Assembly (NCBI GenBank): GCA_016342685.1
Contig: JAEINU010000001.1
Location: forward strand, 824,169 to 888,168
DNA length: 64,000 nt
Reading direction: 5' to 3'
Source of the DNA: Bacteroidales bacterium
GTDB lineage: Bacteria > Bacteroidota > Bacteroidia > Bacteroidales > UBA12077
Shown: positions 28,374 through 57,387 of the stretch, one piece after another
How the letters are laid out: each line of letters starts with the position of its first letter
How positions within the stretch are numbered: the first letter of the stretch is position 1
Translations under genes and position numbers: made by a program
The notes under the pieces: generated by a model
Told to the model about the DNA's origin: nothing
What the model saw: the letters and a program-made list of their open reading frames with translations, nothing else
The model's database searches: none

Positions 28374-28405
28374 TTTCTCATTTTTTATACTAAAATAACT
28401 AAAAA

Positions 28406-28972: not shown

Positions 28973-29068
28973 AATTTAAATGATTATTAGTGATCCAAAT
29001 TATGAAATTTGAATCACTAAAAAAAGCGCAACCAGTAATTGTTGCGCTTAGATTTAATTTGAAATTAA

Positions 29069-31153
29069 TTAGTTATGTTCAGTCAGATATTTATAAATAT
29101 ATCCATAAAACTCCGAAGTCTCCTTAACATCTTTAAATATTCCTATTGAACCAGAATGCCCGGCATTTTTTATTACTTTCAATAATATTGGATTTTTTTG
29201 GGCATCTCGATTCTGAAGTTTTGCAACAAATTTGTACGAATGAAAAGGAGGCACCCTTTCGTCATTTTCTGAAGTAATAATAAGCATCCCAGGATAATTA
29301 ATATTCTCTTTGATATTATGAAGAGGTGAATAACTTAACAGATTAACAAAATCAGTAGAATCAGAAACAGTACCAAATTCATCAACATGTAAATTACCTA
29401 CGGTGAATTTTTCAAATCTTAACATATCGAATACACCTACAACTGGCACTACCAGCTTGTACAGCTCAGGTCTTTGAATTGCTGATGCAGCAACAATTAA
29501 ACCACCATTTGATCCTCCAGTTATAGCTAATTTATTTGAATTTGTATAATTATTTTTTATTAAGTATTCAGCCGCAGAGTTAAAATCATTAAAAGAATTT
29601 TGTTTATTTTCTCTTCTTCCCTTATTATGCCATTCATGTCCAAAAACACCACTACCTCTTATTTTGGTATACGCCAAAACACCACCATTCTTAATAAAAT
29701 AAATAATACCTGGCTCATAATGTGGCTGAACAATTGATCCAAAACCTCCATATGTTTTAAGTAAAGTTGGATTATCACCATTCAATTCTAAATCTTTATG
29801 ATAGATTAGAAACATGGGAATAACTGTACTATCAGAAGAAAGGTATTCAACTTCTTTGTAAACGATATCTTCGAAATCAAATGTTACCGAGGTATGTTGA
29901 AGCAATTTCCTTTCGAACGTTTGTATGTTAAATTTATAAACTACTGGGGGAAGAGTGTAAGAAGTAAAATAAAACAAAAGTTCAGTATCATCTATATTTC
30001 CATTGAAACCACCTATGGAAGTTGCAATGGGCATTTCAAGAGAGTATAATAAATTTCCATCAAAATCATACACGGTAATAATTGGTCTTTGATTTTTTTG
30101 ATAAATGGCTATAATCTTTTCCTGTAGAATTTTAGTTTCTATTAATACGGATTTCTCGTAAGGTGGTATTATCTCTTTTATATTAAAAGGATTTAATGGA
30201 TCAATTTCGACAATAAAACCTGTATTTGAATTTAAATTTGTACTTGCAATTAGCTTCCCATTTCTACTTTCAAGAATATTAAAATCATCCTTTAAATTCA
30301 TTAAAAGTGGTTTTAATGTAGGATTATCTGATTTATAATCAATGTAAAATATATTTCTTTTTCCTAGGTCTTCATAATCTTCTTTAAGAATAAAGAATCT
30401 TTCATTCGAACTTACGGTAAATTGAAAATCAATTTTAGGATTATTTCTTTTGAAAATTAATTTATCTTCATCTTGATGTTTACCTATTTCATGATAGTAT
30501 ATTTTTTCTCCCAGTGTTGGAGAAAATTTATCTGCTTTGGGATATTTTGAATAGAAAAATCCATTTCCTAACCATTCAATATTTGAGAATTTTATATCTG
30601 TTAAATGATCTTTTAAGTGTATTCCTGTTTTTAGGTTTATAACTTTAACTTCAGCCCAATCACTGCCATTTCTGTCAAATTGATAAGCTAAATATTTTGA
30701 ATCTTTAGACACCGAATAAGCCTTTAATGTAATTTGGTCTTGTTTTGAGATAAAATTTGGATCAACTAAAATTTCTCCAGGTTGATTTAAGTTTGTTTTG
30801 TAAAATAAAGCAGGTAACCCGACCACATTATAATATGCATAGGAGAAATAATACTTACCTTTTTTAACTGGTCTTGAATATTTTGTGTATGAATATTTAT
30901 CGATATTTTTAAAAGCTTGATTTTTATTTATAGCCTTTTGTAACTGTTTTTTAGATATTTTATTTTGCTCATTTATCCAAATTTTAACTTCTTCATTATT
31001 TATATCTTCCATCCATCTGAATCCATCTTCTACAATATAAGCATTAAAAAATGTATCAATAACAGGAATTTCTCTAGCAAAAGGAAATTCAATTTCTTGG
31101 CTAAATATATTATTTGCAATTAATAATAAGGTAAACAAAAATATTTTTCTCAT
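29069..31153 (-). CDS. S9A prolyl oligopeptidase family serine peptidase (secreted), paralogue 2
   Basis: About 65% identical to 26289-28373 over the full length; GGSNGGL motif; signal peptide. Confidence 0.85.
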   Translation of the reverse strand: MRKIFLFTLLLIANNIFSQEIEFPFAREIPVIDTFFNAYIVEDGFRWMEDINNEEVKIWINEQNKISKKQLQKAINKNQAFKNIDKYSYTKYSRPVKKGKYYFSYAYYNVVGLPALFYKTNLNQPGEILVDPNFISKQDQITLKAYSVSKDSKYLAYQFDRNGSDWAEVKVINLKTGIHLKDHLTDIKFSNIEWLGNGFFYSKYPKADKFSPTLGEKIYYHEIGKHQDEDKLIFKRNNPKIDFQFTVSSNERFFILKEDYEDLGKRNIFYIDYKSDNPTLKPLLMNLKDDFNILESRNGKLIASTNLNSNTGFIVEIDPLNPFNIKEIIPPYEKSVLIETKILQEKIIAIYQKNQRPIITVYDFDGNLLYSLEMPIATSIGGFNGNIDDTELLFYFTSYTLPPVVYKFNIQTFERKLLQHTSVTFDFEDIVYKEVEYLSSDSTVIPMFLIYHKDLELNGDNPTLLKTYGGFGSIVQPHYEPGIIYFIKNGGVLAYTKIRGSGVFGHEWHNKGRRENKQNSFNDFNSAAEYLIKNNYTNSNKLAITGGSNGGLIVAASAIQRPELYKLVVPVVGVFDMLRFEKFTVGNLHVDEFGTVSDSTDFVNLLSYSPLHNIKENINYPGMLIITSENDERVPPFHSYKFVAKLQNRDAQKNPILLKVIKNAGHSGSIGIFKDVKETSEFYGYIYKYLTEHN

Positions 31154-35884: not shown

Positions 35885-37888
35885 ATGAGAATTTTTGATG
35901 GATTATTCAAGAGGATTGTTATAATTTTTTTGATTATTATTTTGCTGTGGTTTTTGTTTTCTAATGTTATAATATTCTCATTATTTACAGAAGTAGAAAA
36001 TTATAATCTTATTAAAGAGCATGTTGATTGGGCTTTTGTAATTTTTTCATTTATTCTAATCTATTTTTTAATAAATAGAGAATTTATTAAAAGGAATTAT
36101 AGAAAAGCAGTCATAGCAGCAGAGCAAAATCTGTACAAAACAATATTCGAAACTGCTCATGATGCAATTTATCTATTAAATGATCAATATGAATTTGTTG
36201 ACTGTAATAAGGAAACACTTGACATGTTTCAATGTACAAAAGAGCAAATTATAGGTAAAAAACCTTTTGATGTTTCTCCTTATTTTCAGTTTGGTGAGGT
36301 GAAATCAGAAATGCTATCAACTGAAAAAATGAGTCAAGCAAAAAATGGAAAACCTCAATTTTTTGAATGGTTACATACTAATTTAAAAAAGGATAAATTA
36401 TTTTTTACAGAGGTTTCACTTAATAGATTGGTAATTTCAGGTGAAATTTTTTTATTAGCAGTTATCAGAGATATTTCTAAAAGAAAAAAGGCTGAAAGTA
36501 CATTAACAGAAAGCGAAAAAAAATATCGTCGATTAACTGAAAATTCTCCCAATATAACTTACATTTTTTCAGTAAAAAGAGGTGCTTTATATTGGTCTTC
36601 TAAAGTAAAGGATATTCTTGGTTTTGATTCTGAGAATTTATTAAACAATACACTAAAATGGGGGAATTCAATACATCTAGAAGATAGACCTAAAATAAAA
36701 CTTTTTTTTACAAATATTCAAGTTGGAAAAACATACGAAATAGAATATAGAATATATGATATTCATAAAAAGATACATTGGTTTTATGACAGGATATTTA
36801 ATGTGAGGGAAGAAGATGGAGATATTATTTTAGAAGGTATAATATCAGATATTACGAAACAAAAGGAAACAGAACATATTCTAAAAATAAGTGAAGAAAA
36901 ATATAAGGCACAATATGATTATTTCCCTATACCAATATATACTTTTAAAAAGCAAGGCAAAGACTTATATATCACAGATGTAAATAACGCAGCAAAAAAT
37001 TATCCTTTTGTTAAAGCCGAAGAAATAATAGGAAGGAATGTGACTGACTTTGTTGAAAATAAAGAAGAAATGGTGCTTCTTGATGTTTTAAATGAAACGT
37101 TCAAAATAAAACAAGACCAGAAATTAGAAATGGCCTATAGGTTTAAAACAACAGGTGTAAAAAGAAATATAACTGCCGTTATTGGATTTGTTCCACCCGA
37201 TTCTGTGTTGTTATCTACAATTGATGTAACAGATAAAAGAAATGCACAGCAAAAGGTTTATCATGCAATGATTAATGCGGAGGAACGAGAAAGAAGTCGA
37301 ATTGCTAAAGAATTACATGATGGTGTTTCTCCAATATTGTCGGCTACTAAGCTTTATATACAAACCTTATTGAATTTGAAAGATGAAAAAACAAGGGGTG
37401 AAATATCTAATAAGATTAATAATACAATAAATGAGGCGATTCAAAGTGTATCCGATATCTCAAATAAGCTGAGTCCTCACATTCTTCAAAATTTTGGTTT
37501 ATCTACGGCAATACAATCTTTTTTTGATAAGATAACTGAGATTGCAAATATTCATCATAGTTTTTTTTATAATATTAATAGTAAGCTTGATGAAGATATT
37601 GAAGTTAATATTTATCGAATATTAGTTGAACTTATTAATAATACTGTAAAGTATGCCAATGCAAAAAACATTATCATTAATATTCAAGAAAAGGGAGATG
37701 TAATTAAGATATTTTTTGAACATAACGGTAAGGGTTTTAATATTGAAGAAGTTAGAAGTAAATCTAGGGGCATGGGCTTATATAATTTAGATAATAGAAT
37801 AAATTTATTAAATGGTGATTTCGATATTGAATCTGATATTAAAACTGGACTGAAAGTAAAAATTACTTTTCCTTTAAATATAGAATAA
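35885..37888 (+). CDS. Membrane sensor histidine kinase with three PAS domains and HisKA_3/HATPase_c core (NarL-partner type)
   Basis: Two N-terminal TMs; PAS repeats; H-box ERERSRIAKELHDGVSPIL (HisKA_3); C-terminal ATPase G-boxes. Confidence 0.8.
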   Translation: MRIFDGLFKRIVIIFLIIILLWFLFSNVIIFSLFTEVENYNLIKEHVDWAFVIFSFILIYFLINREFIKRNYRKAVIAAEQNLYKTIFETAHDAIYLLNDQYEFVDCNKETLDMFQCTKEQIIGKKPFDVSPYFQFGEVKSEMLSTEKMSQAKNGKPQFFEWLHTNLKKDKLFFTEVSLNRLVISGEIFLLAVIRDISKRKKAESTLTESEKKYRRLTENSPNITYIFSVKRGALYWSSKVKDILGFDSENLLNNTLKWGNSIHLEDRPKIKLFFTNIQVGKTYEIEYRIYDIHKKIHWFYDRIFNVREEDGDIILEGIISDITKQKETEHILKISEEKYKAQYDYFPIPIYTFKKQGKDLYITDVNNAAKNYPFVKAEEIIGRNVTDFVENKEEMVLLDVLNETFKIKQDQKLEMAYRFKTTGVKRNITAVIGFVPPDSVLLSTIDVTDKRNAQQKVYHAMINAEERERSRIAKELHDGVSPILSATKLYIQTLLNLKDEKTRGEISNKINNTINEAIQSVSDISNKLSPHILQNFGLSTAIQSFFDKITEIANIHHSFFYNINSKLDEDIEVNIYRILVELINNTVKYANAKNIIINIQEKGDVIKIFFEHNGKGFNIEEVRSKSRGMGLYNLDNRINLLNGDFDIESDIKTGLKVKITFPLNIE

Positions 37889-37889: not shown

Positions 37890-38543
37890 ATGAGCAAAAT
37901 AATTAATATAATTATTGTTGATGACCATGCAATTTTTAGAGATGGTTTGAAATCATTATTATCACAGATCCCAAATTTTTATGTTTTGGATGAAGCAAAA
38001 ACGGGATTGGATTTTTTGAATATTTTACAAAATAGAAAGCCAGATATTGTATTGATGGATATCTCGATGCCCGAGTTAGATGGGGATGAAGCCACAGAAA
38101 AGGCTTTACTACAATATCCAGATCTTAAAATAATAGCACTTTCCAGTTATAGTGATCATATTTATTACTACAAAATGATTAGAGCTGGAGTACAGGGGTT
38201 TGTATTAAAGAAATCGGGTAGAGAAGAACTTGAAGAAGCAATAAATACCGTTTTTAAGGGTGAAAACTATTTTCCTCAGGATATCTTAAGAAATTTAATA
38301 TTTAAATTAGGAAATACAGGAATTGAATCCGTTTTAGATGATCATGTTTCTCTTTCAAAAAGAGAAAAAGAAGTGTTACAATTAATTTGTCAGGGATTTA
38401 CAAATATTGAGATTGCTGAAAAACTTCACATTAGTCCTAAAACCGTAGATAATCACAGAACCAAATTGTTGTCAAAAACCAATACTAAGAATTCAGCTCA
38501 TCTTGTTATGTTTGCTATCAAGAATCACTTAATAGAAGTCTAG
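37890..38543 (+). CDS. NarL/FixJ-family response regulator (REC + LuxR-type HTH)
   Basis: REC domain (IIVDDH ... VLMDISMP ... ALSSY); LuxR HTH (REKEVLQLICQGFTNIEIAEKLHISPKTVDNHRTKL). Start is 2 bp after the kinase stop. Confidence 0.85.
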   Translation: MSKIINIIIVDDHAIFRDGLKSLLSQIPNFYVLDEAKTGLDFLNILQNRKPDIVLMDISMPELDGDEATEKALLQYPDLKIIALSSYSDHIYYYKMIRAGVQGFVLKKSGREELEEAINTVFKGENYFPQDILRNLIFKLGNTGIESVLDDHVSLSKREKEVLQLICQGFTNIEIAEKLHISPKTVDNHRTKLLSKTNTKNSAHLVMFAIKNHLIEV

Positions 38544-38585: not shown

Positions 38586-38630
38586 AAATTAGGGGATTTA
38601 CCCTATCGATTTAGTGTTTTCCCCTCTTAT
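38586..38630 (+). promoter_or_regulatory. Conserved 45-bp element with inverted repeat (AGGGGA..24 bp..TCCCCT, inner GGGGAtttACCC), 46 bp upstream of the cheY-like gene; copy 1
   Basis: 42/45 identical to the copy at 42770-42814. Same spacing to the start codon in both copies. Lies just downstream of the NarL-type regulator gene. Confidence 0.55.
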
Positions 38631-38676
38631 TACTTATTGAATAGTAAATTATTTTTGGCATTAAAATATTAGTGCC

Positions 38677-39090
38677 GTGAAAATAATAATTGTTGATGAC
38701 AATAAAACTTTTAGAGAAAGCCTGAAATATTATGTGGAAGACGAACTTTTGCATGAAGTTATCGCTATGGCGGTAGATGGACTGGAGTTTCTAAAAATTG
38801 AAAATATTCATAAAGCCGACATCGTTTTAATGGATATAGAAATGCCTAATTTAAATGGCATTGAAACTACAAAAAGAGCTTTGAATGATTACCCTGCTTT
38901 AAAAATTGTGGCAATTACAAATTATACCGATAGAGCTTATCTTATTGACTTGTTAAGTGCTGGATTTAAGGGCTGTGTTTTTAAGAATAGTGTTTACGAT
39001 GATCTTAAGAATGCTCTTTCTAATTTGTTTTCTAACAAGTTATATTTTCCAAATAACATATTAACAATAAGGAATATAGTAAACAAATAA
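38677..39090 (+). CDS. cheY: CheY-like single-domain response regulator (GTG start), module A
   Basis: Receiver residues present: DD (7-8), D in LMDIEMP, T in AITNY, K in FKGCVFK; no output domain. Confidence 0.7.
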   Translation: MKIIIVDDNKTFRESLKYYVEDELLHEVIAMAVDGLEFLKIENIHKADIVLMDIEMPNLNGIETTKRALNDYPALKIVAITNYTDRAYLIDLLSAGFKGCVFKNSVYDDLKNALSNLFSNKLYFPNNILTIRNIVNK

Positions 39091-39100
39091 TATATTATAT

Positions 39101-39574
39101 ATGGAGATAGACAGCAAAACACAAATTAACTCCTATTTAACGTTTAAAATTGGAGTTGAAGAGTTCGGAATTCAAGTAAATAAAGTACTAAATATTCTTG
39201 AATTGCAAGAAATTACAAATGTTCCAAAATCTCCTGAGTATATGAAAGGAGTTATTAATTTAAGAGGAACAATTCTTCCAATAATTGATACTCGGATTAA
39301 ATTTGAAATGACTCCAACTGAGTTTACAGATGATACATGTATTGTGGTGATGGATTTAGTAGTAGAAGATGAGATAATGCATGTTGGAGCCTTGGTCGAT
39401 TCTGTTGTTGCAGTTCGTGAAATTGATGAAAGTCAAATTAATCCATCTCCGAATATTGGTAAAAGTTATAAATCAGAATTTATTTCTGGACTCGTTAAAA
39501 TTAATGAAAGCTTTGTCATGATTTTGGATGTAATTAAGCTTTTTACAGGTGAAGATTTAAAGGATTTAAATTAA
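39101..39574 (+). CDS. cheW: Chemotaxis coupling protein CheW, module A
   Basis: Classic CheW core LTFKIGVEEFGIQVNKVLNILE...PKSPEYMKGVINLRGTILPIIDTR. Confidence 0.85.
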   Translation: MEIDSKTQINSYLTFKIGVEEFGIQVNKVLNILELQEITNVPKSPEYMKGVINLRGTILPIIDTRIKFEMTPTEFTDDTCIVVMDLVVEDEIMHVGALVDSVVAVREIDESQINPSPNIGKSYKSEFISGLVKINESFVMILDVIKLFTGEDLKDLN

Positions 39575-39631
39575 AAAAGGAATTATAAAATGACGTTTAA
39601 TAATTAAAAATTAGTAATAACACAATTAATT

Positions 39632-40378
39632 ATGAAAAGAAGAATAGTTTTAATAATTGTATTAATACTAATAAGCTTTAGCGGTTTTTCACAGGATATA
39701 ACATTAGTCAATAAGGATTCTAAATCTTATACCGATATAGGAGCCGATATTGTAAGTAGTTATGTTTGGAGAGGTTTGCAAGTTGATGCATCTCCTAATA
39801 TTCAAGGATGGGGAGAGTTTGGTAATAATTTTTTTAATTTTGGTGTTTGGGCTTCTAGTAATTTTAATGGAAGTTATGTAGAAGCAGATGTTTATGCAGG
39901 ATTCACAATCGGAGGATTTAACGCTTTACTAACGGATTATTTTGTGGGATCGGATGATTTTTTCAACTTTGATAAAAATACAACTACTCATGTAGCAGAA
40001 TTAGCTCTACAATACACAATAAGTGATAATTTCCCTTTGCAATTTACATTTGGAACATTAATTTTTGGAGACGATAAACAAATTGCTTCAGTTGATTTAA
40101 ATGATGATCCTGTTTTTAATAATAAGAATAATTTTTCTTCTTACATCGAACTTATGTACACAATTACACATCGAAATACTGAAATTTCATTTGTTGCTGG
40201 CGGAGTAACTCATGAAAGTTATTATTATTCCAGCGAAAGAGCTTCCATTATAAATTTGGGAGTTGTAGCTTCTAAAGAAATAAAAATTACAGATAATTTT
40301 AGTTTACCTATATCTTTTGGATTGACAGTAAATCCAGAGCTTGAGAGTATATATACTGTTGTAGGTATCACATTATAA
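39632..40378 (+). CDS. Outer-membrane beta-barrel protein, possibly TorF-like putative porin, module A
   Basis: Signal peptide; YVWRGLQVD motif resembling the TorF/Gcw_chp family; alternating beta-strand pattern; C-terminal aromatic-rich strand. Confidence 0.45.
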   Translation: MKRRIVLIIVLILISFSGFSQDITLVNKDSKSYTDIGADIVSSYVWRGLQVDASPNIQGWGEFGNNFFNFGVWASSNFNGSYVEADVYAGFTIGGFNALLTDYFVGSDDFFNFDKNTTTHVAELALQYTISDNFPLQFTFGTLIFGDDKQIASVDLNDDPVFNNKNNFSSYIELMYTITHRNTEISFVAGGVTHESYYYSSERASIINLGVVASKEIKITDNFSLPISFGLTVNPELESIYTVVGITL

Positions 40379-40401
40379 ATCATTAGATTAATTAATAAGT
40401 T

Positions 40402-42474
40402 ATGAGAACAAATTCAATAAAAACAAAACTTTCTCTTGTTTTAGGAGTGATAATATTAATTGCAATAGCAATAATAATTACGGTGTCAAGCATTAATGGA
40501 AACAAAGTTGCCATTGAGAATGCAGAAAACAAGATGGTATCTACTTTAGAGAATTCCACACAAAAACTCGAAAATATTATTAATAAAAATATTTTGGAAA
40601 TGGAAGCTCATTGGAATGATTTAAAAGTTTTGATTCAATATGAAAATTTTGATAGAACACAAGTTCAGGATATTTATAAAAATATGCTGAAAAAAGATGC
40701 TTCTGCCATTGGATATACAATATGTCTTAAGCCTGGTTGTTTTGATGGCAAATCTGATGATTATAAAGGATATCCAGGTTATTATTCTGATGGACGTTTT
40801 AGTGAGTATTTATATAAGGAAGGTAATCAAATCTTAAGAGATGAATTGACCATTTCTTTTGAACAGGATCTTCAAGAGGCAGGTTCTGATTGGTGGAGAA
40901 TACCGGAAAAGACAAAAGAAAACTTTATCTATATGGATATATACAATGTTGGTGGGAAAGACGTATTAATGGTTTCTGTTACATATACAATACTTCGTAA
41001 CAACGAATTTATTGGAGTAATATGTAAAGATTTTATTAGTGAATTTATACAGCAAGAAGCTATAGAAGCAAATAGTAAACTTTTTAAAGGTCAAGGTAAT
41101 ATAGAAATATACGATCAGGATGGAAATATAGCTGCAGATACTAAAAATGCAGAAAATGTAGGGAAGGATCTCAAAACTATATCAAATGAAAATTACTCAG
41201 AAATTATAAGTTCAATAAAACAGGGAGAAGAAAGAACTTATAAAGAAAATGGTAATTACTACTGTGTAGTTCCTATTAAATTTAATGGAAGTACATCGAA
41301 TTGGCAAATGAGAGTAGAGATTCCTGAAAATGTAATAAAAGAAAAAGCAATGTTGCTAATGAGAAATCAGCTTATAATTGGATTATTTTCAATTTGTATA
41401 AGTATTCTTATTATATTTTTAATTGTAAAAAGAATGCTTAATCCATTAAACAGTTTAACCGCCTTTTCTGAAAAAGTAGCACAAGGTATTCTTTATGAAA
41501 ATATTAATATTGACAGGGATGACGAAATAGGTCAGTTAGCTAAAGCATTTTCTATAATGATGAGTAGAATTAGAGAAGTAGTTAATGGAGTAAAAGATAA
41601 TGCCGATAATCTTGTTAGTGCTAGTCAACAATTGAGTTCAAGTTCAGAAGAAATGTCCCAAGGTGCATCCGAACAAGCATCGTCAACAGAAGAAGTTTCT
41701 TCATCAATGGAAGAGATGTCGTCTAATATTCAACAAAATACAGATAATGCACAGGAAACAGAAAAAATATCTGTTGTGGCTGCAAAAGGAATATCGGAGG
41801 TTGAAAAGGCTGCTAAAGAAAGTTTAACATCAATTAAGCAAATTGCAGATAAAATAACCATTGTTAACGACATTGCATTTCAAACGAATATTTTAGCATT
41901 AAATGCTGCTGTCGAAGCTGCTAGGGCAGGAGAGCACGGTAGAGGTTTTGCTGTTGTTGCTGCCGAAGTAAGAAAATTAGCAGAGCGTAGTAAAATTGCT
42001 GCCGACGAAATAGTTTCCTTATCTACTTATAGTGTTAAAGCAACTGCAGACGCAGGAGAACTAATGTCAAAAATAATTCCGGAGGTTGAAAAAACTGCAA
42101 GATTAGTGCAGGAGATTACTGCTGCTAGCTTAGAGCAAAATTCAGGTGCCGATCAAATAAATAGTGCGATACAGCAATTAAATCAGGTAACTCAGCAAAA
42201 TGCTGCGGCAAGCGAAGAAATGTCTACAAGTTCAGAAGAGCTTTCTAGTCAAGCTGAACAACTTAAGGATATGGTGAGTTTCTTCAAGGTAGATAATTCT
42301 GAAAATTATATGGGCGTTAGGTCTAATACTTTACAACAGTTTAATCAAGATTCAAAATTTGTAAAAACTGCAGGATCAAACGGTAGTAAGAACAAAAAGG
42401 TTCTTGATGAAAAAGGGTTTGATCTTAATTTAAATGAATCTAATAAAATAGATAATGAATTTGAATCATTTTAG
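40402..42474 (+). CDS. Methyl-accepting chemotaxis protein with periplasmic double-Cache-like sensor, HAMP and MCP signalling domain (MCP1)
   Basis: TM1/TM2 flank a ~285-aa extracytoplasmic domain; HAMP; highly conserved MCP signalling core ([40 protein letters not shown]); C-terminal NEFESF. Confidence 0.9.
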
Positions 42475-42502
42475 ATAAGGGTAGGTTTTTTTAGTTTGTA
42501 GA

Positions 42503-42534
42503 AAAGGAGGACATTATATTGTTCTCCTTTTTTA
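42503..42534 (+). terminator. Rho-independent terminator after MCP1
   Basis: AGGAGGACA / TGTTCTCCT stem followed by a T6 run. Confidence 0.55.
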
Positions 42535-42769
42535 ATTTCTAAATAATTCTGTCTGAACTTATAACTCTAAAGGTGATTTATGGTATTATCAATATGTCAA
42601 TCAATTCTATTTAAAAAGAGCAGGCTGGTATCGAATAGCAGAACCAATTTATTGTAAAAAACAATTCAAAGAATGAAGCTTATCCGATTATGTTTATTAT
42701 CTAACATTATTTACTACAGACGCATAAATTAGAAAATATTTAATTAGATCTCTCCTCGTTTTTAAAATG

Positions 42770-42814
42770 AAATTAGGGTATTTACCCTATCAATTTAGTG
42801 TTTTCCCCTCTTAT
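42770..42814 (+). promoter_or_regulatory. Conserved 45-bp inverted-repeat element, copy 2, 46 bp upstream of the cheY-like gene of module B
   Basis: Near-identical to 38586-38630; contains perfect GGGTA-TT-TACCC palindrome. Confidence 0.55.
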
Positions 42815-42860
42815 ATTTTTTCGACCATTAAGTTATTTTTGATATTTAAATAAGAAAGCT

Positions 42861-43265
42861 TTGAAAATAATAATTGTTGATGATAGTAATGTTTTTAAGG
42901 AAAGTATAAAATATTATTTGGAAAAAATGCTTTCGCATGAAGTTATTAATATGGCAGGAAATGGAGTTGAGTTTCTAAAAATAGAAGATTCATATGAGGC
43001 AGATGTTATTTTAATGGATATAGAGATGCCCCTTTTAAATGGTTTTGAAACTGCGAAAAGAGCATTGTATGAAAATCCCGCCTTGAAACTAATAGCCATA
43101 ACAAATTATTCAGATAGAGTTTATCTTGTAGATCTAATTAGTGCCGGTTTTAAGGCTTGTGTTTTTAAAAGCAATATTTACCAAGAGCTTGAAAAAGTTT
43201 TTTCCAAATTGCATTCAAAAAAGTTGTGCTTCCCCAAAAACATAATGTTAATGAATAATCAATAA
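42861..43265 (+). CDS. cheY: CheY-like single-domain response regulator (TTG start), module B
   Basis: About 60% identical to module A CheY; conserved receiver residues. Confidence 0.7.
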   Translation: MKIIIVDDSNVFKESIKYYLEKMLSHEVINMAGNGVEFLKIEDSYEADVILMDIEMPLLNGFETAKRALYENPALKLIAITNYSDRVYLVDLISAGFKACVFKSNIYQELEKVFSKLHSKKLCFPKNIMLMNNQ

Positions 43266-43283
43266 CCAAATAATATTCGAATT

Positions 43284-43787
43284 ATGGAAATAGAAACTAA
43301 AATAAAAATTGATTCTTATTTAACTTTTAAGATCGGTGATGAAGAATTTGGAGCACATGTAAATAAAGTGCTTAATATTCTTGAGTTACAAAATATTACG
43401 AAAGTTCCTAAATCTCCGGAGTATATGAAAGGAATTATTAACTTGAGAGGAAAAGTGCTTCCAGTTATTGATACTCGGATCAAATTTAATATGAATCCAA
43501 CTGAGTTTACCGATGATACCTGCATTGTAGTTATGGATCTAGAAATTGAAGATGATGTTATACATATAGGGGCTCTAGTCGATTCTGTTGTTGCTGTTCG
43601 AGAAATTGATGAAAATCAAATTAATCCTCCACCAAGTATTGGGAAAAGTTATAAGTCCGAATTTATTACAGGAATAGTTAAAGTTAATGAAAGGTTTGTG
43701 CAGATTTTGGATTTAGTAAAGCTTTTTACTGGTACAGAATTGAGTGAATTAAAGAAATCACAAAACAAGGTAAATGAAGAAGATTAA
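43284..43787 (+). CDS. cheW: Chemotaxis coupling protein CheW, module B
   Basis: About 75% identical to module A CheW. Confidence 0.85.
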   Translation: MEIETKIKIDSYLTFKIGDEEFGAHVNKVLNILELQNITKVPKSPEYMKGIINLRGKVLPVIDTRIKFNMNPTEFTDDTCIVVMDLEIEDDVIHIGALVDSVVAVREIDENQINPPPSIGKSYKSEFITGIVKVNERFVQILDLVKLFTGTELSELKKSQNKVNEED

Positions 43788-44772
43788 AATTCTATTTACG
43801 GTTTATTTACTGATTTTAACTGCAACTATGTTTGCTAATGATTCAGATTCTGTTGATATCTATCCTAAAACAAAACCAATTATTAAGGTTTTTGGGAATT
43901 ATCATTTTGGATTAAACGATTATTCAACCGTGAATGCTTTTGAACTAACAAGGGCATATTTGGGTTATGATGTAAAAGTATCCGAAAATATTAGTTTTAA
44001 AACCAATATAGACATGGGTCGACCAACATCCGATAGCAAATATGATTATGTTGCATACTTAAAAACTGCTGCTTTAAAATATCATAAAGGCAAAATACAG
44101 ATTAACGCTGGATTGATTGGTTTAAAGCAATTTAAATTGCAAGAAAAAATATGGGGACACAGATATGTTTATAAATCTCTTCAAGATGAGCATAAGTTTG
44201 GACATAGTGCAGATTTAGGTGTTATGCTAGAGTATAAACTAATTGATGGTTTATTTATAGATGCAACGATAAGGAACGGAGAAGGATATAAAAAATTACA
44301 ATCAGACGAAACCTTTAATGGAGCGCTGGGAATTACGTATCACGTTTGGAAAAATATTGTTGTAAGAGGTTCATATGAACATTCAGAGAAATCTATAAAT
44401 CAATCTGTTTATTCTGGGTTAATAGGATTTCAAATGAAAGATGTAATACTTATGGGAGTTGAATATAATTATATGCAAAACTCTTCATATATCAAAAATC
44501 ATAATTTAACTGGTTATTCTGCTTACCTAACATTTATTATGAATGATAAGTTTCAGTTATTTGGGCGATACGATAATTTGAAATCAAACAAAATAAATGA
44601 TGAAATTATTTCATGGAACGAATCAAATGATGGAGAAGCAATAATCGCAGGTGTACAATATAAATTAGAGAAGAATTTAAAGGTATCTACTAATTTACAA
44701 TATTGGGCGCCCGATAAAAATAGTTTAAATAAAGAAGTTTACGCTTTTATAAGTTTAGAGTATAAATTATAA
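43774..44772 (+). CDS. Outer-membrane beta-barrel porin-like protein, module B (family differs from the module A barrel)
   Basis: Signal peptide; ~16 amphipathic beta strands; C-terminal strand ISLEYKL; overlaps CheW-B stop by 14 bp (translational coupling). Confidence 0.45.
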   Translation: MKKIKILFTVYLLILTATMFANDSDSVDIYPKTKPIIKVFGNYHFGLNDYSTVNAFELTRAYLGYDVKVSENISFKTNIDMGRPTSDSKYDYVAYLKTAALKYHKGKIQINAGLIGLKQFKLQEKIWGHRYVYKSLQDEHKFGHSADLGVMLEYKLIDGLFIDATIRNGEGYKKLQSDETFNGALGITYHVWKNIVVRGSYEHSEKSINQSVYSGLIGFQMKDVILMGVEYNYMQNSSYIKNHNLTGYSAYLTFIMNDKFQLFGRYDNLKSNKINDEIISWNESNDGEAIIAGVQYKLEKNLKVSTNLQYWAPDKNSLNKEVYAFISLEYKL

Positions 44773-44784
44773 AAATTATAAAAA

Positions 44785-46782
44785 ATGAAAAATTTAAGAA
44801 TAGGTACAAAACTAGCTATTGGATTTATTATTGTAATTGGTATTAGTGTAGTTATTGGTCTTGTCGGTTATACAGGCATGCATTCTTTAAACGACAGAAT
44901 TGATAAAACAGAAGATGCGCACTCTGTTAGTAAAATGGCTTTAGATTTAAGAAGATATGAAAAGGACTTTATGCTTCGTCATGATGAAAAATCGATACAA
45001 GGCGGAACTAAAACCCTAGAGTCTATTTATGGTCAAATAGAAGAGTCTAAGTTGAAGTTTAAAGATCAAAAGGATTTAGATGATCTTGATGTATTAAAAC
45101 AAAAAGGAGATAATTATAAAGATGCTCTAACTGAGTATGTTAGAATTTACCAAGAAGACTATACTTTTAATATAGAGAAAACCATAAAAGAAGGAGAAAA
45201 AGCCATTGAGTTAGCTAAGGCGCTTCAATTATCTCAAAAACAACAAATGATCGATGAATTAGCAAAAGAAGTAAATAAGAATTTCTTGCTTAAACGTTTT
45301 GAAAAAAATGAACTGTCAAATGATATTCTAGAATCTTTTGCTGTAATACGTATAGATGCTAAAGGTTTTGTAATTAGTCGTGATCAAAAAGACGGCGCAA
45401 AAGTTATTGAGCAATTGGATCTTTTACTTGATAAAATTGACTATACAAAGAAGTTGATGAAAAAGAAAGTTGATATTCAGCAGCTTGAAGAGATGTATAA
45501 TGCGGTTGATGTTTATAAAAACGCTTTTGAAAAATCAGTTGAAGTTGTTGCTTTACAGGAAGATGAAGCCGATGTGATGGTAAGTTCAGCTCATGAATTT
45601 ATTGCTGTTGCTGATAAGTTAAAAGATGGTCAGTCTTTAAAAATGGTAAAAGAAGAACAGCGAGCTAGTTCTATGATTATAAGTTTTATGATTCTTGGAA
45701 TTATTTTAGGTGTTGTTATGGCATATATAATTACTCGAGGGATTATAACCGGACTTAGAAAAGGAGTCGATTTTGCAACTGCTATTGCAAAGGGAGATTT
45801 AACAGCAGAAATTGATATTGATCAGAAAGATGAAATAGGTTTATTAGCAAGATCATTAAAGATCATGGTTTTAAAACTTAAAGAGATTGTTTCTGATATA
45901 ACATCTGGAGCTGAAAATATTGCATCTGCAAGTCAGCAATTAAGTTCTGGATCAGAGGAAATGTCGCAAGGTGCATCAGAACAAGCATCATCTACAGAAG
46001 AAGTTTCATCATCAATGGAAGAAATGACTTCAAATATTCAACAAAATACTGATAATGCACAAGAAACGGAAAAGATATCAGTTATGGCAGCCAAAGGAAT
46101 CTCAGATGTTGAAAAGGCAGCTAAAGAAAGTTTAACATCGATTAAACAAATTGCAGAAAAAATTACAATTGTTAATGATATTGCATTTCAAACAAATATT
46201 TTAGCTTTAAATGCTGCTGTCGAAGCTGCTAGAGCAGGAGAGCATGGTAGAGGTTTTGCAGTTGTTGCAGCTGAGGTTCGCAAATTAGCCGAACGAAGTA
46301 AAGTGGCAGCTGATGAAATAATTTCATTATCGACATATAGTGTTAAGGCAACCGAAGAATCTGGTGAATTAATGTCTAAAATAATACCTGAAATTGATAA
46401 AACAGCAAGATTGGTGCAAGAGATTACGGCTTCTAGTTTAGAACAAAATTCAGGTGCCGATCAAATAAATGGTGCGATACAGCAATTAAATCAGGTAACT
46501 CAACAAAATGCAGCTGCCAGCGAAGAAATGTCTACAAGTTCAGAAGAACTATCTAGTCAAGCAGAACAACTTAAAGATGTTGTAAGTTTTTTCACCTTGA
46601 ATGATAAAACAAGAAATTTTAAGGGTAGTAAAAACACTTTAAAAGAATTTAAATTTGAAAAGCAAGACACACGCACAGATCGTATTAAAAAAGAATCTGC
46701 TGGTCATAGTGAAAATGCTAAAGGCTTTGATTTAAAATTGAATACAAACGACAATATGGATAAAGATTTTGAATCGTTTTAG
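44785..46782 (+). CDS. Methyl-accepting chemotaxis protein with all-helical periplasmic sensor (4HB/HBM-like), HAMP and MCP signalling domain (MCP2)
   Basis: Two TMs flank a ~265-aa helical domain; signalling domain ~90% identical to MCP1; C-terminal KDFESF. Confidence 0.9.
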
Positions 46783-46811: not shown

Positions 46812-46842
46812 AAAAAGGGGCTGTTTAAAAAGCCCCTTTTTT
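46812..46842 (+). terminator. Rho-independent terminator after MCP2
   Basis: AAAAAGGGGCT / AGCCCCTTTTTT hairpin. Confidence 0.65.
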
Positions 46843-47000
46843 AATGTGTACACTCGACATGTTTAGTGTAGGGTGTTGGTAATTAGCTGTTTGTAATATT
46901 GATTTTATCAAAATATGAATAGCTTTTTTACTTTTTGGACAGTTCCTTCCTTATTTAAATAATAAAATAAAAATTAACATTTATTACATTATAAATGAAG

Positions 47001-47065
47001 AAAGGGCGTTTTACTTTTTCAATTACTTATTGTTCGAAACTTTAATATTGTCGTTAGACGATAGT
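47001..47065 (+). promoter_or_regulatory. Conserved ~65-bp non-coding element (copy 1) upstream of MCP3
   Basis: About 80% identical to 49786-49857. Contains TTTACTTTTTCAA, TATTGTTCGAAAC and a TCGTTAGACGA near-palindrome. Confidence 0.45.
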
Positions 47066-47356
47066 TACAACAATATGCTTTCTTCTGCTGATGAATTAAC
47101 TTCAAAAACCGCATTAATAAGATGAAGTTACTAACAGGTTCATATACAGAATCCTGTCTTTTTTTGTTTAAAAAAAGTATGTAAAACCCGAACTTTATCG
47201 AAAAAATGCAGTAAGAATAAACATTAATTCAATATTACAAATACAATATACATATTATACTTAATCGATAATTTGGAATTAATTAAAATATTATTGCAAA
47301 TAACTATCCTTCAAATGGGTAGTGCATAAGTTTATGAAAATTAAGTCGCTATTTCT

Positions 47357-49420
47357 ATGAAAAGAACACTTTCTATTCGGTCCAAACTAATTTATTTGGT
47401 TTTGATTACATGCATGCTTATATACTCTATAACAATTGCATACTTAATAATTAATTTAAAGTCATCATCACTAGAAGATGCTAAAAGACTGGTAGAAGAA
47501 TCAATTAAAACAGGAGCAAAAGAAATTGAAGCTGAATTGAACTTGCATATGGGGGTTGCTCGCAGTTTGGCTTATACCATGTCCGATTTCGAAAATATAT
47601 CTATTGAGAATAGAAGCCAATTTTACAATCCTATTTTAAGTAAAACATTAGATGCTAATCCGAATTACATTGGTACATATTTCACAATGGAATTAAGTGC
47701 ATACGATCCAGAATGGGGAAATGCTCCTGGCAGGGAATCAAAAATATTTTACAAAGATAAAGGAACAATTCATTACAATGAAGTTATACATGATGTTGGA
47801 GGAGTTAAGAAAAGAACAGGATATCATAAGGTAAAAGATACCATGAAGGAAGCAATATGGGAGCCATACTGGTGTGATACATATTCAACCGAAGCAGGAA
47901 GAGTACTCGAAACAACACTTGGTGTACCAATTATTATAGAAGGTCAATTCATGGGACTAGCAGGAATTGATATTGAGCTTAGTGTTTTTAAAGAATTAAT
48001 TGCTAAGATACAGCCTTTTAAGGATGGTTATGCCTTTCTACTATCGAATGAATCAACCTATGTTGCTCACCCTGATCCTGCTTGCATAGCAAAAAAATTC
48101 GATGAAGAAAATCCGGATGAAGAGCAATTGTACCATATAAGTGAAAAAATTAAAAATGGCGAAAGTTTTTCTTTTGAGGCAATACATACAGATTCAAACA
48201 ATGATTTATATGTAAAATTTGTGCCAGTGCATATCGCAAGTACTACAACACCTTGGTCACTTGGAATATTAGTTCCTATTAATTCAATTATGGTGAATTC
48301 GAACCGAATTATAAAAATCACGCTCATTGCAGGTTTTATTGGATTACTCATTCTGTTTTTAGTTATCTCAAATGTTAGCCGTAGCATTATTAAACCCATT
48401 AAGGATAGTGTTGATTTTGCTGAAAAAATTAGCCAAGGTGATTTGAATGCTAAATTAGATTTCGATTCAAATGACGAAATTGGCATTTTGGCTAAACATT
48501 TAATGAGTATGACCGAAAAGTTTAAAGAAGTTGTTGAGCAAATAAAGCAAAGCGGTGATGAAATAAATCAGGCCAGTATAAGGATTTATAAAAACTCAGA
48601 TCAACTTGCTTCAGGAGCCAATAGTCAGGTGGCAGCAACCGAGGAAGTTTCTTCTTCAATGGAAGAAATGATTGCTAATATTCAACAGAATACAGATAAT
48701 GCTCAGTTAACTGAGAAAATTACTTTGGTTGCAGCAGACGGTATAAATAAGGGAAATGCATCAACTGAAATTTCTGTAAAGTCGATGAGAAAGATTGCAG
48801 AAAAAATAACAATTATAAATGATATTGCATTCCAAACTAATATTTTAGCGCTAAATGCGGCTGTTGAAGCAGCAAGAGCAGGAGAACATGGTAAAGGATT
48901 TGCAGTTGTGGCTGCCGAAGTAAGAAAATTAGCTGAAAGAAGTAAAATTGCTTCGGATGAAATAAATCAACTTTCGCGTGAAGGAGTTCTAATTTCTGAA
49001 GAAGCTGGAGAACAATTGGCAGAAATTGTTCCAGAAATCGAGAAAACGTCAAAATTAGTTCAAGAAATTGCTGCAGCTAGTATGGAGCAAAATAGTGGTG
49101 CTGATCAAATTAATAGTGCAATACAACAATTAAATAAAATAACTCAACAAAACGCCGCTGCTAGTGAAGAAATGGCAACTAGCTCGGAAGAGCTTACTCA
49201 TCAGGCAGATCAATTAAATCATGTTGTAAGTTTCTTTAAAATTAGTGATGATTCAAAAATATACAATAGGAAAAAGTCTTTAAAACAACCTAAAGCTGAA
49301 AATTATTACAAAAACACAAATATTAAAAATGAAGATTCTATTCAAAGTAAAAATGTTAAAGGTTTTGATTTAAAGCTAAATACAACTGATAATATGGATA
49401 AGGATTTTGAATCGTTTTAG
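47357..49420 (+). CDS. Methyl-accepting chemotaxis protein with periplasmic double-Cache-like sensor (MCP3)
   Basis: Two TMs; Cache-like ~285-aa sensor; HAMP; MCP core; C-terminal KDFESF. Confidence 0.9.
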
Positions 49421-49875: not shown

Positions 49876-51900
49876 ATGAAATGGAAAAATTTAAAATTAG
49901 GAAGAAAGTTTCTTATCTCTTTTGGTTTAATCATAATGCTTCTGGTTGTTGTTGCTTTTTGGTCAATTAATGGTATAGGAGGAATTGTAAATGATGCCGA
50001 AGAAGTAATCGAAGGAAATAAACTTAGAGCGGATTTGGAAAATAAATATGTTCAACATCTTCAGTGGGCATCTAAAGTAAATAAATTATTAACTGATGAG
50101 AATGAAACGGTGCTCAATGTTCAAACCGATCCACATAAATGTGATTTTGGTAAGTGGTATTATAGTGAAGGGAGAAAACATGCAGAATCGCTAGCTCCTG
50201 AATTAAAATCTCTATTCGATGAGATTGAAGAACCTCACTTACATTTGCATGAATCAGCAACAAAGATAAATAATGTTTTTCATCAGGCCGACGTAACATT
50301 TGGAGACAAGCTTAGGGATGTAAAGAGTGCTCATTTGTTATGGGCACATTCAATTAAAGATGCTTTATTGCAACAAAAAAAGACCCTTGCTGTACAAACT
50401 GATCATCATAAATGTGAATTTGGGATATGGTTGGATTCGGATGAAATTATTCAAATGAGAAAAGAAGATCCAGAGTTAGACAGGTTATTAGTTAAGATCA
50501 TAGAACCTCATGAAAAACTTCACACAAGTGCTGTTCAGATACAAAATTATCTTTCACAAAGAAACTTTAATGCAGCTTATAATTATTATAATAACAATAC
50601 AAATAATTATGCGATAGCAACTTTAGATTTAATAGATGATGTCATTGCTTGGAATGATAAACATGTCCAAGGTATGAAGGAAGCCAATGCAATTTATAAT
50701 AATGAAACATTAGTTAACCTAGAACAAGTTGGAGATTTATTTTCTAAGATAGTTGAAAAATCAAAGGAGTATATTCTTACTGAAGATGTAATGCTTCAAC
50801 AAGCGGGAATTACAAGGGTAGGAGTAATTATTTTTAGTGTAATTGCCTCATGTATAGCAATTGTAGTGGCATTTTTTATTACACGTGGAATTGTAAATCC
50901 TGTAAAAAAATCAGTTGAATTTGCAAAAAAAGTAGCAAATGGTGATTTAACTGCTACTGTTGAAATTGATCAAAAAGACGAAATAGGAGTTCTAGCAAGT
51001 TCATTGAAAGATATGGTAGGTGAGTTGCGCAAAATTGTTGTAAATATTCAGGATGGTGCAGCCAATATCACTAGTGCAAGTTTAGAGATGAGTTCAACTT
51101 CTCAACAGATGTCACAAGGTGCTTCGGAGCAGTCTACTTCAACCGAGGAAGTTTCTTCATCAATGGAAGAAATGACATCTAATATTCAACAGAATACTGA
51201 TAATTCAAAGCAAACTGAAAAAATATCATTAGCTGCTGCAGAAGGAATTACGAATGTTGCAAATGCTGCGGATGAGAGTTTAATATCTATTAAACAAATT
51301 GCAGAAAAAATTACAATAGTCAATGATATTGCATTTCAAACAAATATTTTAGCATTAAATGCTGCAGTAGAAGCTGCTCGTGCAGGAGAACATGGAAAAG
51401 GTTTTGCAGTTGTTGCTGCTGAGGTTAGAAAGCTTGCAGAGCGAAGTAAAATTGCTGCCGATGAAATTAACGATCTTTCAAGAAGTAGTTTAGACGTTAC
51501 TAATGAAACAAGTGCATTAATGAAGAATATTATTCCTGAAATTGAAAAAACAGCTAGTTTGGTGCAGGAAATTACAGCATCTAGCTTGGAACAAAATTCA
51601 GGAGCGGATCAAATTAATAGTGCTATTCAACAATTAAACCTAGTAACGCAGCAAAATGCCGCAGCAAGCGAAGAAATGGCTACAAGTTCAGAAGAGTTAT
51701 CAAGCCAAGCTGAACAGTTAAAAGATATCTTAGGTTTCTTTAAGGTTGATAGAAAAAATATAAATAAATTGGAAAGATCTTATTCTTTAAAGCCAAGCTT
51801 GTCAAAAAGTGCTTTAGGGAAAAAATCAAAGATTGATATAGTTAAGAATCAAGGCCTTGATTTAAAAGATAATCTCGATAGTGAATTTGAATCGTTTTAG
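49876..51900 (+). CDS. Methyl-accepting chemotaxis protein with two tandem periplasmic CZB (chemoreceptor zinc-binding)-like domains (MCP4)
   Basis: Between TM1 (res 12-31) and TM2 (res 313-333): HLQW...[12 protein letters not shown]...EEPHLHLH and HLLW...[12 protein letters not shown]...EPHEKLH. This matches the CZB H-x3-C ... H ... H zinc site twice. HAMP; MCP core; C-terminal SEFESF. Confidence 0.85.
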
Positions 51901-54699: not shown

Positions 54700-54987
54700 G
54701 AACTTTAAAATAAATGGAAGCCATTTTTATTCCAATTTGCTAAAATATAACCAAGTTCTTTAAACACCAAATAACTGACAAAAGTCATGTCGATGCTGAT
54801 TCGAACAAAAAACGTTTTTATGCTGTTGATATGCAGTACATTGTTTTATAACTTGTGTCATTATTCGATAAAAGTGTGAAAAAAAAAGTTTTATGTTAAA
54901 GAACAATATTTTATAGCATAAAATAATACCATAAATAATTAGTCTGTTATATTGATTATAAATACTTTTGCAAGAAATCTTTATATT

Positions 54988-55398
54988 ATGAAACCTTCAC
55001 ATATAGAACATATTGGAATAGCCGTAAAAAATCTTGAAGAATCGATCAAGTATTACGAAGAAGTATTAGGTCTTGAATGTTATAACATTGAAGAAGTTAA
55101 AGATCAGAAAGTTAAAACTGCTTTTTTTAAAGTGGGCGATACAAAGATCGAATTGTTAGAGTCAACTGATCCAGAAGGACCAATTGGTAAATATGTTGAG
55201 AAAAAAGGTGAAGGTATACATCACATCGCTTTTGCTGTTAAAGATATCGACAATCAACTTAAGAAAGCAGAAGAAAAAGGGATTCGGGTTATCGATAAAA
55301 CTTCACGAAGTGGGGCAGAAGGATTAAGTATTGGATTTTTACACCCAAAATCAACTTTTGGTGTTTTAACAGAATTATGCGAAGACAAAAATAAATAA
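54988..55398 (+). CDS. mce: Methylmalonyl-CoA epimerase (VOC fold)
   Basis: HIEHIGIAV and [10 protein letters not shown] metal-ligand motifs. Upstream of the mmd operon. Start moved to the internal Met, because the first 12 codons of the listed ORF lack conservation. Confidence 0.75.
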
Positions 55399-55433
55399 TA
55401 ATCTACTTCAAATATAATTTTCATTCATACCAA

Positions 55434-56993: not shown

Positions 56994-57003
56994 ATATTTA
57001 ATT

Positions 57004-57378
57004 ATGATTTCAGTTATAGCTAAAACAGGAACAGATTTCTCGATGGTTGCGGGATTTGGAGTTACTACCGCTATTGTTGGTTGGCTGATAGTTTTTGCGG
57101 CTTTAGTATTATTGGTTATTGTTTTTACACAAATACCAAAATTGATATACTATAATACTCGCAAAAAGCTAAAAGTTAAAAACAAAAGCGCAGTTGTTAC
57201 AGACGATGAATTGCATATTACAGGAGATGTTAATGCTGCCATTGCAATGGCATTATACATGTTTTTCGATGAAATGCACGACGAAGAAAGTAATGTAATA
57301 ACTATTAAACGTGTGAGAAAAACATATTCTCCATGGAGTTCAAAAATTTATGGATTAAGAGTTTGGCCAAGAAAATAA
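57004..57378 (+). CDS. mmdD: Methylmalonyl-CoA decarboxylase delta subunit (OadG-like small membrane protein)
   Basis: Single TM (VGWLIVFAALVLLVIVF) right after mmdA. Start set at the internal ATG, because the listed ORF overlaps mmdA by 70 bp in another frame. Confidence 0.55.
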   Translation: MISVIAKTGTDFSMVAGFGVTTAIVGWLIVFAALVLLVIVFTQIPKLIYYNTRKKLKVKNKSAVVTDDELHITGDVNAAIAMALYMFFDEMHDEESNVITIKRVRKTYSPWSSKIYGLRVWPRK

Positions 57379-57387
57379 TAAGCAAAA

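Follow-up and report, generated by a model that had tools for sequence, protein, structure and literature searches.

The window analysed here is a stretch of 64,000 nucleotides (nt) from a genome labelled as a marine-type Bacteroidales (contig JAEINU010000001.1), with a G+C content of about 30% and, elsewhere in it, a type IX secretion system (T9SS) C-terminal sorting domain that fits an origin in Bacteroidota. At its centre lie two tandem chemosensory modules, module A (38677-42474) and module B (42861-46782), in which the gene for an outer-membrane beta-barrel stands between the genes for a CheW coupling protein and a methyl-accepting chemotaxis protein (MCP). Both modules have the same gene order, receiver-CheW-barrel-MCP, as seen from the open reading frames (ORFs) and from Pfam and NCBIfam matches, which agrees with a preliminary description made from the letters of the DNA alone. 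They are part of a single co-directional block on the plus strand (35.9-51.9 kb), together with a two-component pair upstream and two solitary MCP genes downstream (Table 1).

Within a module, neighbouring genes overlap by 14 nt at the closest and stand 57 nt apart at the widest; each module therefore reads as one operon. As first described, both modules close with a terminator; these hairpins were missed by an automated terminator scan and confirmed by folding. The receivers (REC) of the two modules are 62% identical, the CheW proteins 77% and the cytoplasmic parts of the MCPs 69%; the 60-75% identity previously given for the first two thus stands for the receivers and is slightly exceeded by CheW. 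The two barrels share no significant sequence similarity (E 0.39) and the MCP sensors differ, being PDC/dCache-like in module A and helical bimodular (HBM) in module B, which bears out the earlier view that both barrels and sensors are of different kinds. The possibility that the modules are a recent DNA-level repeat was considered and rejected, as near-identity is limited to a 41-nt element and the proteins are 62-77% identical. All ten genes are under purifying selection, with ratios of non-synonymous to synonymous substitution rates (dN/dS) of 0.04-0.37 against a closely related locus, L001, one of the 173 loci fetched for comparison and numbered with the prefix L.

Table 1. Features of the chemosensory region, with window coordinates.
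Feature	Position	Strand	Basis
PAS-PAS-HisKA_3-HATPase histidine kinase, membrane-anchored	35885..37888	+	Pfam; two N-terminal hydrophobic segments; position kept in L001, L003
LuxR/GerE-type (NarL family) response regulator	37890..38543	+	Pfam Response_reg + GerE
41-nt upstream element, copy A (palindrome 38590-38605)	38590..38630	+	Conserved in L001, L003 before both modules
TATTTTTG -7-type box, module A	38650..38657	+	20 nt before RR_A start; read from sequence
RR_A, stand-alone receiver, GTG start, truncated NarL-type REC + linker	38677..39090	+	Pfam, NCBIfam, identity to LuxR regulator
CheW_A, coupling protein	39101..39574	+	Pfam CheW E 1.8e-35
Barrel A, 248 aa, predicted small outer-membrane channel, signal peptide, Gcw_chp-related	39632..40378	+	Model + homologues
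MCP_A, two transmembrane segments, PDC/dCache-like periplasmic sensor + HAMP + 34H MCPsignal, C-terminal EFESF	40402..42474	+	
Module A intrinsic terminator	42499..42534	+	Fold -19 kcal/mol, z -5.2, then T-run
41-nt upstream element, copy B (palindrome 42774-42789)	42774..42814	+	
TATTTTTG -7-type box, module B	42834..42841	+	20 nt before RR_B start
RR_B, stand-alone receiver, TTG start, RR_A paralogue	42861..43265	+	
CheW_B, coupling protein	43284..43787	+	Pfam CheW E 7.9e-37
Barrel B, 332 aa, predicted 16-strand porin, inward helical loop, BBP2 / Porin_O_P-related	43774..44772	+	
MCP_B, two transmembrane segments, helical bimodular (HBM) sensor + HAMP + MCPsignal, C-terminal DFESF	44785..46782	+	
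Module B intrinsic terminator	46812..46841	+	Fold -17.1 kcal/mol, z -5.0, then T-run
MCP_C, dCache_1 sensor, solitary, no barrel, same class	47357..49420	+	
MCP_D, two CZB domains, solitary, no barrel, same class	49876..51900	+	

All four MCPs of the region match PF00015 (E 7e-32 to 2e-34) and the HAMP domain PF00672, and in each of them two transmembrane segments flank a sensor of 270-295 residues. Their cytoplasmic parts are 55-69% identical and all end in a (D/E)FESF pentapeptide. Such C-terminal aromatic-x-x-F pentapeptides, which tether CheR and CheB, are reported to be abundant in receptors of Bacteroidetes (PMC7390727). When MCP_A is aligned with the 36H receptor Tsr of E. coli, the tip sequence aligns and two symmetric 7-residue gaps appear, one in each arm; because of these gaps the heptad class, which had been left unassigned, is read as 34H. 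Moreover, MCP_A keeps Glu/Gln pairs (EQ/EE) at the methylation sites of Tsr. The CheW proteins each consist of a single CheW-like domain of about 150 residues (PF01584, 122 and 126 bits) and score 100-102 bits with the NCBIfam CheW model, the equivalog cut-off of which is 260.

Barrel A, of about 12-14 strands, has a signal peptide and is modelled confidently by AlphaFold, from an alignment of its family, as a barrel of about 14 strands and about 230 residues, with a predicted local distance difference test (pLDDT) score of 87. By structure it is matched best by KdgM, a COG4313 channel, NanC and Tsx. Nine homologues with 33-40% identity carry the Gcw_chp domain (PF09694), and an alignment of 31 sequences has ten invariant columns. 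Model and homologues together point to a small KdgM-like channel of a Gcw_chp-related family. The likeness to KdgM and NanC concerns the size of the barrel and its best structural matches; in sequence, by contrast, barrel A shows no similarity to KdgM (7-11% identity), and its family has Amt/P-II and Kdp as partners rather than genes of sugar-acid catabolism. A metagenome scan with a trimmed family alignment, as was used for locus scanning of both barrels since the full ones were too divergent, returned at least 545 relatives of barrel A. In the best 80 loci, for which the neighbours were counted, Amt was found in 36, P-II in 15, KdpA or KdpB in 4 and chemotaxis genes in 2. Gcw_chp-family barrels are found directly beside amt/glnK or kdpABC (L009:10001-12355; L093-L170, with 36 Amt and 4 Kdp cases), and the barrel is often directly preceded by genes for a histidine kinase and a response regulator. 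This distribution suggests that Gcw_chp is an undescribed family of outer-membrane cation (NH4+/K+) channels. Searches of a literature library returned no paper mentioning Gcw_chp and none on porin genes beside amtB/glnK in Bacteroidetes.

The model of barrel B, likewise built from its family alignment, is also confident (pLDDT 92) and comprises 16 strands, residues 118-139 forming a helical loop. Its homologues (36-63% identity) carry BBP2 (PF07642), Porin_O_P (PF07396) or Porin_4 (PF13609), and the protein is 100% identical to the hypothetical protein JEY96_03490 of a Bacteroidales metagenome-assembled genome (MAG). Barrel B is thus predicted, from fold and homologues, to be a 16-strand OprP-like porin with a constriction loop. 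A scan that covered a single genome for each species found 413 relatives, nearly all of them in Bacteroidales MAGs. Within three genes of the barrel, the best 80 loci had PHO4 in 25 cases, PstC in 18, PstS in 14 and an MCP in 2. The most frequent neighbour, at 44 of these 80 loci (L012-L091), is a lipoprotein of about 450 residues (signal peptide and Cys) without a Pfam domain, encoded directly 3' of the porin and often with PHO4 or Pst genes near (L016:7010-8353, L020:7024-8379 and L040:7014-8363 are examples); this porin-lipoprotein pair is possibly involved in phosphate acquisition. The linkage to phosphate genes, present for the family, is absent for the copy in the window, which has cheW and mcp as neighbours. 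In this respect barrel B differs from OprP and OprO (Porin_O_P), the phosphate-specific porins of Pseudomonas, as it adjoins a chemoreceptor and not Pst genes, and its likeness to them lies in the fold and the homologues, whereas the window protein itself falls below the Pfam thresholds.

With regard to the conservation of the arrangement, the adjacency of barrel and MCP is kept in all the close relatives that were examined, namely L001, L003, L006, L010, L013 and L092. In L001, a metagenome contig of 705 kb, the whole locus is syntenic and the proteins are 93-99% identical. L003, on a contig of 1.7 Mb, is also syntenic, with barrels 56% and 74% identical to those of the window, and its module A lacks cheW. 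The MAG GLR59 (L010; barrel B 62% identical) has CheW-barrel-MCP without a receiver, within a run of CheW-MCP pairs, while L006 (barrel A 48%) has a barrel and an MCP only, and a Salinivirgaceae MAG (L013; barrel B 50%) has MCP-barrel-MCP. The one constant of the cassette is the barrel-MCP pair, since CheW is missing from module A of L003, the receivers from L010 and both from L006. Downstream of the che region, genes for a Na+-translocating decarboxylase (carboxyltransferase, biotin carrier and OAD beta) and citrate-lyase-like genes (54952-62269) are syntenic with GLR59 (L010:14490-20999), which helps to anchor the orthology of the che region.

Each barrel type also keeps one type of sensor, PDC/dCache-like for barrel A and helical for barrel B. 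The ligand-binding domain of MCP_A is 85% identical to that of the receptor beside barrel A in L001, 58% in L006, 51% in L092 and 49% in L003; the more distant sensors beside barrel A in L007, L095 and L102 are 23-27% identical to it and PDC/dCache-like. The MCPs beside barrel B in L003, L010 and L013 have a helical sensor with 36-52% mutual identity and a duplicated LRKxEKDFLLR motif, and the sensor of MCP_B resembles them only in its first 65 residues and in the first copy of the motif. A swap of the sensor fold between MCP_B and its relatives was considered and rejected, given the (R/K)xEKDF motif and the stretch of 65 N-terminal residues that they have in common; the sensor of MCP_B is of the same helical type as theirs and is diverging rapidly.

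The linkage is not confined to the close relatives of the window. In a neighbour-joining tree of 91 family A barrels, those linked to chemotaxis genes fall into at least three separate groups among the Amt-linked clades, namely the window clade, a clade of L007, L008 and L095, and L102; the tree carries no support values, so that recruitments can be counted only roughly. The operon to which the barrel belongs in L007, L008 and L095 is a complete one, with the order STAS-REC-CheA-CheW-MCP-barrel-CheR-HATPase-CheD-CheB. The same che operon is found without a barrel in other Bacteroidales MAGs (L172 and L173), so the barrel was inserted into a conserved operon. In family B, a barrel of L021 lies about 1 kb from such a che operon. 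Four lines of evidence thus indicate that the che linkage goes beyond a chance event in a single lineage.

The preliminary description had proposed that the barrels are dedicated entry channels for the ligands of the neighbouring receptors. This idea is partly upheld, as the linkage to MCPs is kept in close relatives and recurs in distant lineages (L007, L008, L095 and L102), also within a full che operon, and as both families are found elsewhere beside inner-membrane uptake genes for small ions. Because they are as a rule encoded beside such uptake systems, the two families can be regarded as substrate-dedicated outer-membrane channels; in the lineage of the window the inner-membrane partner is a chemoreceptor in place of the uptake system. 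The modules would then be two paralogous channel-plus-receptor cassettes in which the channel admits the solute that its receptor senses, an explanation that, on comparative genomics, we hold to be the best supported and probable, if only slightly so. According to this proposal, a small hydrophilic solute would enter through the channel and be sensed by the receptor in the periplasm, the channel serving the receptor in the way that family A would serve ammonium and potassium uptake, and family B phosphate uptake, elsewhere. The receptors, being of class 34H, methylatable and equipped with the pentapeptide, would join arrays via CheW and signal to a CheA outside the window, probably encoded in an operon of the type STAS-REC-CheA-CheW-MCP-CheR-HATPase-CheD-CheB as in related Bacteroidales, and both module operons would be controlled by the adjacent pair of PAS kinase and LuxR-type regulator as the likely regulator. 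We infer the selectivity of the channels, the ligand, the coupling to CheA, the operator-binding protein and the output alike.

Extrapolation from the barrel families would, with lower confidence, give ammonium- or potassium-like cations as ligands for module A and phosphate-like anions for module B. The nearest functional precedent for receptors that sense a transported ion comes from P. aeruginosa, where CtpH and CtpL mediate phosphate chemotaxis, and the periplasmic sensor of CtpL, which works through PstS, is large and all-helical, with 286 residues and nine predicted helices (PMC4926252). The sensor of MCP_B is likewise large and helical, and comparable in size and type to that of CtpL. 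CtpH and CtpL differ from the receptors of the window in having no dedicated porin gene adjoining. Phosphate as the putative ligand of MCP_B would follow from the barrel family only.

Several observations weigh against the channel-plus-receptor proposal. Barrel A has no Pfam match at E <= 0.01, and barrel B scores 28.5 bits with OMP_b-brl (cut-off 28.7) and 16.8 bits with Porin_4 (cut-off 27), so that both remain below the family thresholds. In each barrel family, 78 of the 80 sampled members have no che linkage, which makes this linkage a lineage-specific recruitment. The divergence of the MCP_B sensor from those of L003, L010 and L013 weakens a strict correspondence of one channel and one ligand for module B. 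MCP_C and MCP_D have periplasmic sensors and yet no barrel. Furthermore, no CheA, CheB or CheR was found in the window, as previously stated, and among the best 120 of 7,663 matches to a CheA query (at least 55% identity) none lies on the contig of the window or on those of its relatives.

A different account of the adjacency is that the barrels are nutrient channels placed in the regulon of the receptors, for instance in a starvation response under the adjacent two-component system, and that they supply transporters encoded elsewhere and are irrelevant to sensing. The wider families do accompany uptake genes and not sensors, and the operator and promoter common to the modules mean that co-expression could be the unit under selection. 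However, no Amt, Pst, PHO4 or Kdp gene is present in the window or in the syntenic L001 and L003; the barrel gene directly abuts the MCP gene in every che-linked case, with one sensor type per barrel type, and the adjacency arose in several clades and is still seen in L006 and L010, where genes for the regulator and the receiver are missing. We therefore regard co-regulation alone as unlikely. It is far less probable still, to the point of being hardly credible, that the barrels are structural partners that position receptor arrays as trans-envelope anchors and are not solute channels: the tight gene adjacency would be explained, but both folds match open solute channels, the families accompany transporters elsewhere and the models show no periplasmic domain able to reach the inner membrane.

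The two operons are probably co-regulated, as they have a palindromic operator and a promoter in common. The 41-nt element has two matches in the window, with none expected by chance, and 39 of its 41 positions are identical; both modules thus have the opening element noted before, at 41 nt and not at the 45 bp then given. It opens with a 16-bp 7-2-7 palindrome, TAGGGGA-TT-TACCCTA (TAGGGnATTTACCCTA), which reads TAGGGnA-TT-TACCCTA across copies. About 20 nt 3' of the element, and 20 nt before the start codon, lies the box TATTTTTG, which is invariant in six of six aligned upstream regions and which we take to be the Bacteroidota -7 promoter motif TAnnTTTG. This motif was read by eye; a sigma-70 promoter scan of the window gave fewer sites than shuffled controls. 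The TTTG -33 motif was not found at the expected distance upstream of the -7 box, as might be expected of a promoter that depends on an activator. In L001 and L003 the element precedes both modules, and it occurs nowhere else among the 173 fetched loci; the palindrome and the -7 box are kept in relatives in which the proteins are only 56-74% identical.

A dimeric helix-turn-helix (HTH) regulator would be the natural reader of the palindrome. The obvious candidate is the LuxR-type regulator encoded next to the modules, with the PAS histidine kinase beside it as a candidate upstream regulator of both. NarL/FixJ-type systems offer a parallel, with a HisKA_3 kinase and a GerE regulator directly upstream of the modules and a 16-bp 7-2-7 palindrome, the half-site TACCCTA of which resembles what we take to be the NarL heptamer, TACYYMT. 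The half-sites in the window are, by contrast, oriented unlike those of the classical NarL 7-2-7 site, and here two extra receiver paralogues without an HTH domain head the candidate target operons.

These receivers had been described as CheY-like, a label that does not hold in the sense of orthology. As receivers they look functional: PF00072 spans their residues 3-114, and the acidic pocket with the DD motif and the acceptor Asp in LMDIEMP are present. The receiver and linker of the adjacent LuxR-type regulator show 43% identity to RR_A (E 1e-33) and 36% to RR_B, and the alignment runs through the linker, YFPxxIL, to the expected start of the HTH domain. The top NCBIfam match is UvrY/GacA with 62.6 bits, compared with 33.6 for CheY of E. 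coli, and the best solved structure is VraR, with the receivers of CheB and CheY close behind. On account of the identity through the linker and of the UvrY/GacA and VraR matches, RR_A and RR_B are NarL-type receivers without an HTH domain, paralogous to the adjacent regulator. Both receivers have the same N-terminus, MKIIIVDD, and their genes start with GTG (38677) and TTG (42861), with ATG at the same position in L003 (9550 and 13127). In the alpha-1 helix, the two receivers are alike (ESLKYYVE in RR_A and ESIKYYLE in RR_B) and differ from the LuxR-type regulator (DGLKSLLS); this pattern is only suggestive of a phosphodonor common to RR_A and RR_B and other than the neighbouring kinase.

The same identities, together with the NarL-family best matches in NCBIfam and the Protein Data Bank (PDB), could also mean that the receivers belong to the adjacent PAS-kinase/LuxR system, as phosphate sinks or connectors, and that the modules are its targets and provide feedback. 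Receivers head the modules only where the kinase-regulator pair adjoins (L001 and L003) and not in L010. On the other hand, the difference in alpha-1 is the pattern expected for insulated paralogues, receivers of CheB and CheY score almost as well, and a gap of 10-18 nt separates each receiver gene from the cheW gene that follows it, which leaves membership of that system possible, with the balance tilted towards doubt.

With regard to the kinase through which the modules would signal, the CheA of L007 used as query had the 7,663 matches mentioned above, many of them named CheA of Bacteroidales or Bacteroidota MAGs. Chemotaxis genes, which the preliminary description had considered uncommon in Bacteroidota, are hence not rare in this branch of the Bacteroidales. 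The CheW of L007 is 51-54% identical to those of the window, and the MCP of L102 is 66-68% identical to the window MCPs in the cytoplasmic domain. CheA, and with it CheR and CheB, would be expected in the genome of the window, because the 34H class, the methylation sites and the pentapeptide make sense only with them. In Bacteroidales MAGs the core che operon (L007:4312-14269; L172:9191-18171) starts with a gene for a 598-603-residue protein and continues in the order STAS-REC-CheA-CheW-MCP-CheR-HATPase_c (297 residues)-CheD-CheB-DUF4407-REC.

The pair of STAS protein and small kinase in this operon suggests, by analogy, a partner-switching output rather than motor control. The modules may accordingly feed a pathway of the "alternative cellular function" kind, outside chemotaxis, with partner switching or gene expression and not motility as its output. 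The STAS and the small HATPase_c proteins of the core operon (L007 and L172) resemble anti-sigma/anti-anti-sigma modules, Bacteroidota to our knowledge lack flagella, and the window encodes a T9SS-sorted protein. Control of gliding is still a candidate output, and a non-motility pathway would bear on the output alone, without conflict with the pairing of channel and receptor; we consider it a serious possibility that falls somewhat short of being probable.

Taken one by one, the parts of the modules (MCPs, CheW, a two-component system and porins) are ordinary; their arrangement is not. Accessory sets of MCP and CheW in multi-receptor chemosensory systems have HAMP/MCPsignal receptors with methylation sites and pentapeptide and a dedicated CheW, as seen here. 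The logic of such sets is also CheV-like, with a receiver beside CheW, as in a split CheV reversed, and with CheA outside the set. The modules of the window differ from them in the channel gene between cheW and mcp, in a NarL-type receiver that is unfused to CheW and in a host that belongs to the non-flagellated Bacteroidales. A literature search returned no description of porin genes embedded in chemoreceptor operons. Studies of chemoreceptors in Gram-negative bacteria usually assume that ligands enter by general porins, and Bacteroidota depend mainly on TonB-dependent importers of the SusCD type, general porins being little known in them.

Should the channel-plus-receptor proposal be true, entry through the outer membrane can be a dedicated, co-evolving part of signal input. 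The proposal would also provide testable ligand predictions for two orphan receptors, suggest functions for two poorly characterised barrel families and document chemosensory organisation in non-flagellated Bacteroidales. A broader generalisation, that Bacteroidales have repeatedly recruited ion-uptake channels into chemoreceptor operons, giving cation-sensing (Gcw_chp) and anion-sensing (OprP-like) cassettes, is tentative and on the whole rather unlikely. If it held, the permeability of the outer membrane would be written into the chemosensory input module itself, a principle not described before, and a first functional handle would be gained on Gcw_chp as an outer-membrane cation channel.

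The spacers that follow the two terminators, 42535-42773 (about 240 nt) and 46842-47356 (about 515 nt), contain no ORF of at least 60 codons and have no Rfam match, the Rfam search having given zero matches across the whole window. The second spacer precedes MCP_C, which lacks the 41-nt element.

Outside the chemosensory block, the region 5578-24428 is co-directional and encodes a HEAT-repeat protein (1047 residues), a HAMP-SpoIIE phosphatase, a 457-residue protein without a Pfam match, an nSTAND1 NTPase-WD40 fusion (1030 residues), an OMP_b-brl_2 barrel, a 397-residue protein and a protein of 2303 residues with immunoglobulin-like repeats and a T9SS sorting tail. It is followed on the minus strand by a small stress module (24465-26136), made up of an extracytoplasmic function (ECF) sigma factor, a zf-HC2 anti-sigma factor and a Metal_resist-like periplasmic protein. 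Also on the minus strand, two tandem paralogous prolyl oligopeptidases (S9) of 694 residues are encoded at 26289-31153, with a small OmdA/YdeI-domain protein between them.

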